DNA from: Bacteroidia bacterium
GTDB lineage: Bacteria > Bacteroidota > Bacteroidia > UBA8524
NCBI GenBank assembly: GCA_965249955.1
Contig: OZ252261.1
Span: 3,362,490 to 3,426,489, forward strand
DNA length: 64,000 nucleotides
Direction: 5' to 3'
Positions 13,900-15,577 of this stretch are shown piece by piece. Numbering within the stretch: the first letter of the stretch is position 1; each line of letters opens with the position of its first letter. The notes under the pieces were generated by a model. It did not search any database and was not told the DNA's origin. It was given only the letters and a program-made list of their open reading frames with translations. Both the position numbers and the translations under genes were made by a program.

Positions 13900-14040
13900 A
13901 TAAAAAACATAAATACCTTTGTGCCCGATGATGATATTTTTACAACATACCGCATTCGATTCTTTTCTGCTAGCACATAGCAGTGAGTGCTGCTGTTGTA
14001 TCTGTTGTTGCTAATAACAACCCCTTACTTTTTTCAATTT
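13900..14040 (+). promoter_or_regulatory. metY leader carrying a Bacteroidota-type promoter, overlapping alternative hairpins and an intrinsic terminator (GTTGTTGC-TAAT-AACAAC followed by a T-run at 14003-14033)
   Basis: TAccTTTG (-7-like) at about 13912. CTGCTA/TAGCAG and GCAG/CTGC are mutually exclusive pairings. The terminator is followed by about 200 nt before the metY ATG. Confidence 0.4.
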
Positions 14041-14242
14041 CCAGTTCCTCATTTCATTTTTTTTAATCGATAAAAAGTTATGGACGCTTTAGCGGCTTTA
14101 ATACGCAATTTTTACGCAGCAATATGTTGCCTAAATTCTAGGTAATACTAAACTTCACGGGCTTTACCGTAAAATCTTCTCGTTACATTTTCACAGTTTA
14201 ATTAATCATTTTAAAAACCAAAAAATATTGGAGGGAATAACT

Positions 14243-15577
14243 ATGCCTTTTAAATTTGAAACATTACAATTACACGCCGGCCAAGAAGTAGATAAAACAA
14301 CCAACTCACGCGCCGTGCCCATTTACCAAACCACCTCGTATGTATTTGATAATACCGAGCACGCAGCCAACCTTTTTGGCCTAAAACAATTTGGTAATAT
14401 TTATACCCGCATAATGAATCCAACTACCGATGTGTTTGAAAAACGCATTGCAGCCCTAGAGGGTGGTGTGGCAGCATTGGCAGTATCCTCAGGGCAGGCA
14501 GCCCAGTTTATTGCCCTTAACAACATATTGCAATCGGGCGATAACTTTATAACTACCTCTTATCTATATGGAGGTACGTACAACCAGTTTAAAGTAGCCT
14601 TTAAACGCTTGGGCGTTGAAGCAAAATTTGCCGACGGAAACAAGCCCGAAAGTATAGAAAGTCTTATAGATGATGATACCAAAGCCATTTATTTAGAAAC
14701 TATTGGTAACCCAGGATTAAATGTGCCCGATTTTGAGCGCATTGCTGCCATAGCCAAACAGTACGATTTGCCTTTAATAGTAGATAATACCTTTGGTGCA
14801 GGCGGTTACTTTTTTAAGCCTCTTGAAAACGGTGCTAATATAGTTGTAGAGTCGGCTACTAAATGGATAGGGGGACACGGTAACTCTATTGGCGGAGTGA
14901 TAATTGATGGCGGTAACTACAATTGGGGTAACGGAAAATTCCCTCAGTTTACTGAACCATCAGAAGGGTATCACGGGTTGAAATTTTGGGAAGTATTTGG
15001 TGCCGATGGCCCCTTTGGAAACATTGCTTTTATCATTCGTGCCCGTGTTGAAGGCTTGCGTGATTTTGGTTCGGCAATTAGCCCCTTCAACTCGTTTTTA
15101 TTAATCAACGGGGTAGAAACACTTTCACTACGTGCTGAGCGTCATGGGCAAAATGCCCTTGCCTTGGCAAAATGGTTAGAGAAAAACCCAAAAGTTGAAA
15201 AAGTGGGTTACCCGGGGTTAGAAAGCAGCCCATCAAATGCCTTAGCCAAAAAATACCTTACCAATGGTTTTGGCGGAGTACTAAACTTTGAACTGAAAGA
15301 AGGCCAAGAAGCCGCTCGCAAGTTTATTGATAGCTTAAAACTGGTTAGCCATTTGGCAAACGTAGGCGATGCAAAAACATTAGCCATACATCCTGCAAGT
15401 ACTACACACGAGCAGCTAAATGAAGAAGAACAAAAAGCGGCAGGTGTTGCACCTGCACAAGTGCGTGTATCGGTAGGTATAGAGCATATTGATGATATAA
15501 TTGCCGATTTTGAACAGGCTTTTGAAAACATTAATACGCAGCAAGCCGCCAACGCTTGCGAATTACCTGCAAGGTAA
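14243..15577 (+). CDS. metY: O-acetylhomoserine aminocarboxypropyltransferase (sulfhydrylase)
   Basis: Full-length Cys/Met-metabolism PLP enzyme with an SD-like GGAGGG ahead of the ATG at 14243. Confidence 0.9.

Follow-up and report, generated by a model that had tools for sequence, protein, structure and literature searches.

A cysteine-codon upstream ORF in the leader of metY in Bacteroidota, a candidate ribosome-mediated attenuator

The metY locus and its cysteine-rich upstream ORF

We analyzed the leader of metY, a gene for an O-acetylhomoserine/O-acetylserine (OAH/OAS) sulfhydrylase, in a stretch of 64,000 nucleotides (nt) of DNA from a Bacteroidia bacterium (lineage UBA8524 of the Bacteroidota; GenBank assembly GCA_965249955.1, contig OZ252261.1, positions 3,362,490 to 3,426,489 of the forward strand). 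This whole stretch is called the window below, and positions are counted from its first letter. An intergenic gap of 457 nt separates the gene of a TPR lipoprotein from the metY ATG at 14243, and a small-ORF listing of this gap contains a previously unannotated upstream open reading frame (uORF1), seven of whose last eight codons encode cysteine (Table 1). An earlier note on this DNA had described a structured leader of about 320 nt with an intrinsic terminator and mutually exclusive hairpins, and had proposed a riboswitch or attenuator ahead of a metY-metX-hom operon; it overlooked the 28-codon uORF1 that holds these hairpins. We propose that metY is the gene under the control of this leader, which is probably a ribosome-mediated leader-peptide attenuator sensing cysteine supply. 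The general idea of an attenuator is thus retained and founded anew on a cysteine leader peptide, and the idea of a riboswitch is given up.

The upstream TPR lipoprotein gene lies on the minus strand, and the region is therefore divergent, as the earlier note had stated. The promoter box that it had placed at about 13912 is present as well, with a small shift of coordinate. In Flavobacterium johnsoniae, the consensus of the -7 element is TAHHTTTG, whose G stands at -5, and the element lies 4-5 nt from the start site (PMC6847099). When this spacing rule is applied to the box in the window, the transcript would start at about 13926-13927, only 1-2 nt ahead of the uORF1 ATG at 13928. This ATG, which is directly followed by a second one at 13931, is located only 6 nt past the box, so that almost no 5' leader would be left and uORF1 would be translated from a near-leaderless message. 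The distance from the predicted start site (about 13926) to the metY ATG is about 317 nt, in agreement with the leader length given before. Identity to the related metY loci L088 and L090 is 96% over 13900-13927, compared with 63-74% farther upstream, and a -7 box is found 4-9 nt before the uORF ATG in L006, L088, L089, L093, L094, and L096.

The close relatives were collected by metY protein matches of 83-98% identity with the same synteny, supplemented by matches of 80-82% identity that added four more leaders. A search with the TPR gene in metagenomes gave one near-identical contig and one relative at 73% that was too short to include the leader. Identity between the window and L088 (whose metY is 91% identical) is 63% upstream of the -7 box, 96% in the promoter region, 89% in uORF1, 62% in 14015-14071, 97% in 14072-14130, 64% in 14131-14200, and 86% in 14201-14242, to be compared with a neutral baseline of 64% at third codon positions of metY.

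The uORF1 peptide ends with CCCCICCC directly before the stop codon. Its cysteine run is the only stretch with seven cysteines in eight codons in all six frames of the 64 kb, the next best having five. Eight codons of uORF1 differ from those of L088 (peptide MMIFMQHTAFDSFLLAHSSECCCCTCCC), and only two of these differences affect the peptide, the other six being synonymous, although 82% of single-base changes made at random would be nonsynonymous (P ~0.0006). Only two changes separate uORF1 from its counterpart in L090, and both are synonymous. These substitution patterns indicate that uORF1 is under purifying selection. In the more distant relatives (L089 and L093-L096, 80-83%), the peptides are different and the design is the same, again behind a promoter box (MKQTAQIFSSMHNMMCCCWCCCCMC, MIGTANILSTLMAAMCCCCCCCMC, MNFTQHNIVSSACTMCMMCCCMMCCC, and MNKNAHIISSAIGASCCCMCCCC, each followed by the stop). 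No Pfam or NCBIfam family matched the uORF1 peptide. The leader therefore has what is expected of a leader-peptide attenuator: a short ORF whose in-frame start and stop appear well placed for translation, and a codon run for an amino acid of the regulated pathway.

Table 1. Features of the metY locus in the window
Feature	Position	Strand	Remarks
TPR lipoprotein gene	13246-13785	minus	Upstream neighbour of the metY leader
Bacteroidota -7 promoter box	13914-13921	plus	TACCTTTG; fits the consensus TAHHTTTG
uORF1, leader-peptide ORF	13928-14014	plus	28 codons; peptide MMIFLQHTAFDSFLLAHSSECCCCICCC; stop TAA at 14012-14014
Pair of hairpins	13967-13993	plus	CTGCTA (13967-13972)/TAGCAG (13978-13983) and GCAG (13980-13983)/CTGC (13990-13993); inside uORF1
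Regulatory codon run	13988-14011	plus	TGC TGC TGT TGT ATC TGT TGT TGC; 7 Cys in 8 codons, right before the stop
Stop-spanning hairpin	14004-14021	plus	GTTGTTG/CTAA/TAACAAC, then CCCTTAC, then T6 (14029-14034); -4.6 kcal/mol
Pyrimidine-rich, nearly G-free tract	14022-14071	plus	T6 (14029-14034) and T8 (14057-14064); neutral sequence drift, composition kept
Most conserved leader block	14072-14130	plus	TACGCA-N5-TACGCA; GCTTTA twice; hairpin GCAGC-AAUAU-GUUGC (14116-14130); identity 97% to L088 and 95% to L090
Second small ORF (candidate)	14080-14145	plus	21 residues; open in all four distinct close relatives
metY translation initiation region	14201-14242	plus	A-rich; Shine-Dalgarno-like GGAGGG at 14231-14236; identity 86-90% to L088 and L090
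metY, OAH/OAS sulfhydrylase	14243-15577	plus	PF01053; TIGR01326 at 688 bits (cut-off 495)
Hairpin in the metY-metX spacer	15627-15660	plus	-26 kcal/mol, then TTTTTG; conserved
metX-like gene, homoserine O-acetyltransferase	15685-16683	plus	MetX models at 305-342 bits, under the equivalog cut-offs
hom, homoserine dehydrogenase	16680-17933	plus	hom subfamily model above its own cut-off

Orthologous leaders and SAM-I riboswitches

To place uORF1 in the phylum, we examined 80 metY loci from species genomes of Bacteroidota (74-80% protein identity), 78 of which have usable upstream DNA. A segment between two stop codons was taken as Cys/Met-rich if it had at least five Cys plus Met in eight residues, within 600 nt upstream of metY. 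Such segments were found on the sense strand of 39 of the 78 loci and on the antisense strand of only one, and no Cys/Met-rich uORF was found in the spacers downstream of metY (metY-metX) at 86 loci. Typical endings, each followed by the stop codon, are MCCCCCCCC, CMYMCCCC, CICCCCCMP, CCMCCC, and CCCCACCC. The run lies 100-210 nt before metY in general and about 255 nt before it in the lineage of the window. At L005 (~2010-2200), two Cys/Met-rich small ORFs, one ending with SMCMCCMYMCM before its stop and the other containing HLSCHCCGMMMRMCC, are located farther from metY than usual, still within 600 nt.

The reading frame of these runs was then compared with the two other frames at 50 non-redundant loci. 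At least 15 open codons precede the run in the cysteine frame at 49 loci, compared with 21 and 22 loci in the other frames, and a stop codon follows no more than two codons past the eight-codon window at 36 loci, compared with three in each of the others. The codons in the runs are TGT (176), TGC (87), and ATG (57), and this mixture argues for codon-level selection on a translated ORF and against a simple nucleotide repeat. Outside the Cys/Met run and its position, the uORF peptides are unrelated across the phylum; conservation of the run with variation of the rest of the peptide is a further property of leader-peptide attenuators.

Covariance-model searches gave no support to a riboswitch in the window. 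The earlier note had suggested a test with the SAM-I, SAM-II, SAM-V, and SAM-SAH models (SAM, S-adenosylmethionine). When the 64 kb were scanned with cmscan against Rfam 15 (4227 families), no match reached the gathering score, these four families and the T-box included, and a permissive scan of 13750-14300 (551 nt, E up to 10) gave only unrelated small RNAs at E=2 or worse and no SAM family. Eight related loci also had no Rfam match at the gathering score. By the same method, SAM-I (RF00162) was found at 62-93 bits upstream of metY at 55 of these 78 orthologous loci, and it would therefore have been detected here. We thus reject the riboswitch reading on these comparative grounds: the leader appears not to be a SAM riboswitch. 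A comparison of metY ortholog leaders had also been proposed in the earlier note; RNAalifold on the eight leaders of the lineage found one shared 5-bp hairpin only, which speaks against a riboswitch too.

SAM-I and the uORF are combined in different ways at the 78 loci. SAM-I is directly followed by the uORF at 24 loci; at 10, a canonical terminator belongs to SAM-I itself and the uORF lies 200-1500 nt (mostly 200-500) farther downstream; and nine have the uORF only, as in the window. The remaining classes are SAM-I within 350 nt and no uORF at the threshold used (15 loci), SAM-I more than 350 nt upstream and no uORF (seven loci), and neither element (13 loci).

Where SAM-I is directly followed by the uORF, the first in-frame ATG is located 2-12 nt (mostly 8-10) past the end of the Rfam model. 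This adjacency suggests that SAM-I may gate translation of the sensor peptide at these loci; a riboswitch gating a uORF has a precedent in the B12 switches of Mycobacterium tuberculosis (PMC11260477). The class comprises L001, L007, L009, L015, L016, L036, L042, L048, L052-L054, L058, L060, L061, L063, L067, L068, L070, L074-L076, and L078-L080 (~2090-2400 in each locus). Most of these loci have no canonical terminator downstream, and the few matches to a hairpin plus T-run are mostly weak. In Chitinophagaceae-like loci (L011 at 1805-2400, L014, L019, L029, L034, L044, L049, and L064), SAM-I comes with a canonical terminator of its own (for example, AGCTCATCTG...GGTGAGCTTTTTTT), and a cysteine uORF ending with CCCCMP before the stop follows 200-500 nt after it, giving two attenuators in series. 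At several loci where the uORF follows the SAM-I terminator, it lies behind a TAnnTTTG-like promoter box.

Proposed mechanism and alternative explanations

Both of the hairpins in 13967-13993 are formed by codons 14-22 of uORF1 (L14 to C22), and the second one uses the first two cysteine codons. They are mutually exclusive, as the earlier note had recognized, because both need the same GCAG; the antiterminator/terminator role assigned to them did not hold up, since they are uORF1 coding sequence. L088 has CTG in place of CTA in the stem, a synonymous change that leaves a G-U pair. Because the competing hairpins are coding sequence of a Cys-rich leader peptide, the sensor is most likely the translating ribosome, which would respond to the supply of cysteine transfer RNA (Cys-tRNA), rather than a metabolite-binding aptamer. 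The structure ascribed to the leader was confirmed only in part: the whole leader (321 nt) is not unusually structured compared with shuffled sequences (z -1.4), and its first 116 nt are (z -3.1).

We infer both stalling on the cysteine codons and its coupling to read-through. Transcription would begin 1-2 nt before the uORF1 ATG, and uORF1 would be translated as a near-leaderless message. When Cys-tRNA is plentiful, the ribosome would pass the seven cysteine codons, terminate at the UAA at 14012, and depart; the hairpin at 14004-14021 could then form, the G-poor spacer of 228 nt would be exposed, and most transcripts would end or be lost before metY. Under a shortage of Cys-tRNA, stalling would occur on 13988-14011, and the ribosome would keep the hairpin open and cover RNA just past the stop codon. 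Transcription would then proceed into metY, and the gene would be on when sulfur amino acids are short.

For the output step, our tentative preference, by analogy with the tna operon of Escherichia coli, is factor-dependent termination by Rho, which we consider plausible and short of probable. Termination through the weak hairpin and distant T-run is an unlikely output; the candidates that remain are control of RNA stability, or premature termination that needs no intrinsic terminator. An output of the termination type is favored by the A-rich metY initiation region, whose predicted accessibility is independent of the cysteine tract, and by the long spacer with more C than G. In the untranslated spacer of 228 nt between the uORF1 stop and metY, the C/G ratio is 2.1-2.8, within the top 1.4-4.5% of 80-nt windows, with 2.8 (top 1.4%) at 14011-14090. 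C exceeds G after the stop at 46 of 49 loci, compared with 17 of 31 control upstream regions. As a zone of loading or pausing for premature termination, the tract at 14022-14071 is a candidate. The conserved block at 14072-14130 probably takes part in the output step, serving perhaps as a binding site or as the link from stalling to output.

Several points weigh against the proposed attenuator. The 80 loci are phylogenetically related, so that the counts given above overstate the number of independent events. The operon serves methionine, yet the run of uORF1 consists of cysteine codons only, and relatives mix Cys and Met. Leaderless messages are a minority in the phylum: leaders longer than 10 nt make up 87% in F. 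johnsoniae, and 5' untranslated regions shorter than 10 nt make up 3.7% in Bacteroides thetaiotaomicron. A ribosome stalled at the first cysteine codons would leave the RNA beyond about 14003-14005 uncovered. Two scans for a stem with an adjacent T-run found no canonical terminator/antiterminator in the leader (13913-14242), the sole match being the coding-internal hairpin 13969-13993. Among orthologous loci whose Cys/Met run stands at the very end of the uORF, as in the window, only one of 42 has a strong canonical terminator (Fisher P = 4e-6 against loci with an internal run, relatedness uncorrected). The case for Rho appears weak, being compositional, and the leaders are G-poor throughout, also within the uORF and beside metY, so that the excess of C over G is unspecific and we have downgraded it as evidence for a Rho utilization (rut) site. 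Finally, the attenuator model gives no account of 14072-14130, the element with the best conservation.

The alternative that survives best is classical attenuation, in which the hairpin at 14004-14021 and T6 would form a working intrinsic terminator, the one claimed in the earlier note, whose 5' arm is occluded by a stalled ribosome. The hairpin itself is real: it folds better than 198 of 200 shuffled sequences (z -3.8), with the last cysteine codons (GUUGUUG) as its 5' arm, the uORF1 stop in its loop (C-UAA), and UAACAAC as its 3' arm, and it is modelled to form only when no ribosome occupies the end of uORF1. Since its 5' arm consists of the last cysteine codons, stalling must open it. The same layout of hairpin, C-rich spacer of 5-8 nt, and U-run is found in L089, L093, and L096. 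Against a terminator stand its low stability (-4.6 kcal/mol, two G-C pairs) and the gap of 7 nt, including CCC, between stem and T6, compared with G+C-rich stems of -11 to -26 kcal/mol and adjacent T-runs in the genuine terminators of the window; a stable G+C-rich hairpin with an immediate U-tract is thus not present at 14004-14034. Segment 14015-14071, which includes the 3' arm and the T-run, diverges from L088 at the neutral rate, and in L088 the T-run is degraded to CTTTTCAC, the second T-run (14057-14064) has decayed too, and a hairpin survives with its register shifted (GUUGC/GCAAC). We read the arrangement, with about 10 nt from the hairpin to a U-rich stretch, as closer to a pause signal than to a terminator. 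Furthermore, the hairpin would be blocked equally by a stalled ribosome and by one that has reached the stop codon; the fed and starved states would therefore not be distinguished without a further element. Both scans found no canonical terminator between uORF and metY in the window or its seven lineage relatives, and a stop-spanning hairpin is not significant as a feature of the class (36 of 47 loci, about 30 expected). We therefore regard classical attenuation as improbable in the window.

It does seem to operate elsewhere in the family. At five of the 47 loci scored, all more distant relatives (L002, L006, L008, L025, and L057), the uORF is followed by a strong canonical terminator (-13 to -26 kcal/mol), and these are exactly the loci with an internal Cys/Met run, 8-19 codons before the stop. 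In textbook attenuators, a ribosome stalled on the codon run leaves the antiterminator free. This geometry was recovered by folding in four of the five: in L006, L008, L025, and L057, as long as the 3' arm of the terminator is not yet made, the 5' arm is paired with part of the uORF, and the antiterminator partner starts about 11-12 nt past the eight-codon Cys/Met window in L008, L025, and L057 and somewhat farther in L006. No antiterminator pairing was seen by folding in L002. The uORF family thus acts as a classical attenuator in some lineages, which supports a sensing role everywhere and does not fix the output step in loci with a terminal run.

According to a second alternative, which has perhaps a small chance of being correct, a trans-acting factor bound to 14072-14130, as DNA or RNA, is the main regulator, and the uORF is secondary or unrelated. 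This block is the best conserved of the leader (95-97%, between neutral flanks), does not fold stably (z -0.1), and contains TACGCA direct repeats 11 nt apart. No such factor is known, the repeats were not seen in the 80-83% relatives, and the recurrence of Cys/Met runs before metY across the phylum would be left unexplained. A factor acting at this block is compatible with the attenuator reading and does not exclude it. The counterpart of the hairpin at 14116-14130, CAAC-GAU-GUUG, is the only downstream element that the window shares with L089 and L093-L096. The second small ORF that overlaps the block was considered as a second sensor and rejected: the frame is open in relatives, but no third-position change was observed, and since its third codon positions are invariant, coding alone does not explain the conservation.

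A third alternative is translational attenuation of the kind described in mycobacteria, in which a free cysteine tract pairs downstream and lowers metY translation, stalling releases the pairing, and transcription is not the controlled step. A polycysteine leaderless small ORF whose tract pairs with the ribosome-binding site of the next gene provides the precedent (bioRxiv 10.1101/834739), and in the window GCAGCA (14116-14121) is complementary to UGCUGC (13988-13993), the two being paired in the minimum-free-energy fold of the whole leader. Instead of lying at the metY start, this partner is 120 nt away from it. The duplex between the cysteine tract and the downstream leader (RNAduplex) is no better than that of shuffled sequences (z -1.4 in the window; median -0.9 over 53 loci) and reaches significance only in a subgroup of Cytophagales. 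When the tract was masked to mimic a stalled ribosome, the predicted accessibility of the metY start did not change (unpaired 0.48 versus 0.53), with similar results in 14 relatives. The result of masking and the lack of a significant partner argue against direct translational control, and we consider it quite improbable. In the Cytophagales loci L058, L068, L074, L075, and L076, a shared hairpin motif, CUGCCnnGUGACnGG, is located about 40-80 nt past the uORF stop; a CAGCAACAC segment pairs with the cysteine tract in L068 and L074-L076 (z -2.4 to -3.6) and not significantly in L058.

A metabolite-binding riboswitch of an undescribed kind, for SAM or another ligand, is very unlikely: the long leader, the presence of SAM-I at most orthologs, and the folding of the first 116 nt would suit it, but no Rfam family matched even with E allowed up to 10, the changes in the structured part, which is coding, are synonymous, the eight leaders of the lineage share one 5-bp hairpin only, and the conserved block is unstructured. 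It is hardly credible that the Cys-rich peptide is itself the functional product, a metal-binding or modified peptide without a sensor role, because, despite purifying selection on its N-terminal part between close relatives, only the Cys/Met run and its position are kept across the phylum, no family matched, and the ORF always lies in a metY leader, often right behind a SAM-I aptamer.

Relation to known leader peptides and neighbouring features

Leader-peptide attenuation is textbook knowledge for his, trp, leu, thr, and phe. The enterobacterial his, pheA, and trp leaders contain a canonical 3:4 terminator together with a 2:3 antiterminator, and such leaders are represented in Rfam and NCBIfam. 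The window resembles them in its codon run for the limiting amino acid near the stop and in its stop-spanning hairpin, comparable to a 1:2 pause hairpin, but the 3:4 and 2:3 structures were not found in it; among Bacteroidota relatives, five have the terminator and four a predicted antiterminator. In E. coli's tna operon, free tryptophan acts on the nascent TnaC peptide to arrest the ribosome at the stop codon and induces a catabolic operon, in a Rho-dependent manner. The proposed attenuator of metY would share with it a ribosome halted right at the end of a short ORF, some 220 nt of spacer without an intrinsic terminator, and post-stop RNA as a candidate factor entry site. Unlike in tna, arrest would here be caused by hunger for Cys-tRNA and would induce a biosynthetic gene, and the role of Rho is suggested by analogy.

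Cysteine-sensing leader peptides described in the literature that we found come from Actinobacteria and, for cysS, from Rhodobacterales. In mycobacteria, polycysteine leaderless small ORFs control the translation of the gene that follows, through pairing of the cysteine tract with its Shine-Dalgarno region (Canestrari et al. 2020; bioRxiv 10.1101/834739). Like uORF1, whose near-leaderless start is predicted, these are first ORFs with a cysteine run at the 3' end, ahead of sulfur amino-acid genes, with tRNA-Cys charging as the proposed sensor. They differ in that they belong to another phylum without sequence relationship and precede cys operons rather than metY, and in that Met is mixed into the runs of relatives of the window, where pairing of the tract with the downstream initiation region was not supported. 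Cysteine leader peptides before cys and cbs in Actinobacteria have no terminator, and Rho was proposed for them as in tna (Seliverstov et al. 2005, PMC1262725). They share with the window the cysteine run near the stop and the lack of a conserved terminator hairpin after it; unlike the present case, they are comparative predictions for another phylum and other operons, with no link to a SAM riboswitch described. In the uORFC-8-2 motif upstream of cysS in Rhodobacterales, conserved cysteine codons of a uORF lie within a stem, and ribosome-mediated attenuation was proposed (Brewer et al. 2021, PMC8632094). That motif differs from the present one by two cysteine codons in the middle of the ORF, a clear terminator stem with a U-run, a tRNA synthetase gene, and its occurrence in Alphaproteobacteria. 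SAM-I before orthologous metY genes takes the same position and serves the same pathway; the window and its close relatives lack it, and there the uORF stands alone behind the promoter.

A Cys/Met leader peptide ahead of metY in Bacteroidota, or its fusion to SAM-I, was found described neither in Rfam, NCBIfam, or Pfam nor in a literature search, which was incomplete, so that an earlier description is possible. Transcriptome papers on Flavobacterium and Bacteroides make general remarks on leader peptides. It may be speculated that the window carries the riboswitch-free form of a widespread Cys/Met-codon leader-peptide module of Bacteroidota that reports charging of sulfur amino-acid tRNAs, is mostly terminator-free and based on Rho or pausing, and is gated by SAM-I at about a third of the loci, where the SAM level and Cys/Met-tRNA charging would be joined. 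Such a module would also suggest how SAM-I works in a phylum with no Shine-Dalgarno sequences for it to sequester. If the attenuator reading is right, a regulator would be assigned to a sulfur-assimilation gene in a large and ecologically important phylum, and a recurrent small ORF overlooked by genome annotation would be recognized. About 50 natural variants, with or without a classical terminator and with or without SAM-I, would be available for comparing ribosome-mediated control. The layout of SAM-I plus uORF would also open to direct test the old puzzle of how riboswitches act in Bacteroidota, which have no Shine-Dalgarno sequences.

Bacteroidota are generally without Shine-Dalgarno sequences. 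The GGAGGG in the window, 6 nt ahead of the metY ATG, is kept in close relatives and absent from the 80-83% relatives. On the other side of the leader, a LytTR-type response regulator, a DoxX membrane protein, and the TPR lipoprotein are found beside metY in the same order in the window (11027-13785), L088 (1-1554), and L091 (1-1541). In the window, a LytS-type histidine kinase lies ahead of the response regulator.

The title of the TIGR01326 subfamily is 'O-acetylhomoserine aminocarboxypropyltransferase/cysteine synthase', and its annotated products are homocysteine and cysteine. The gene context of metY, metX, and hom given in the earlier note is correct; their union in a single operon is less certain because of the strong, conserved hairpin and T-run between metY and metX, and metY may not be fully co-transcribed with the two other genes. 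This hairpin, inside a spacer of 107 nt, is nearly invariant in L088, L090, and L091 despite diverged neutral sites, and it is possibly an internal terminator limiting the reach of leader control, or a stabiliser.

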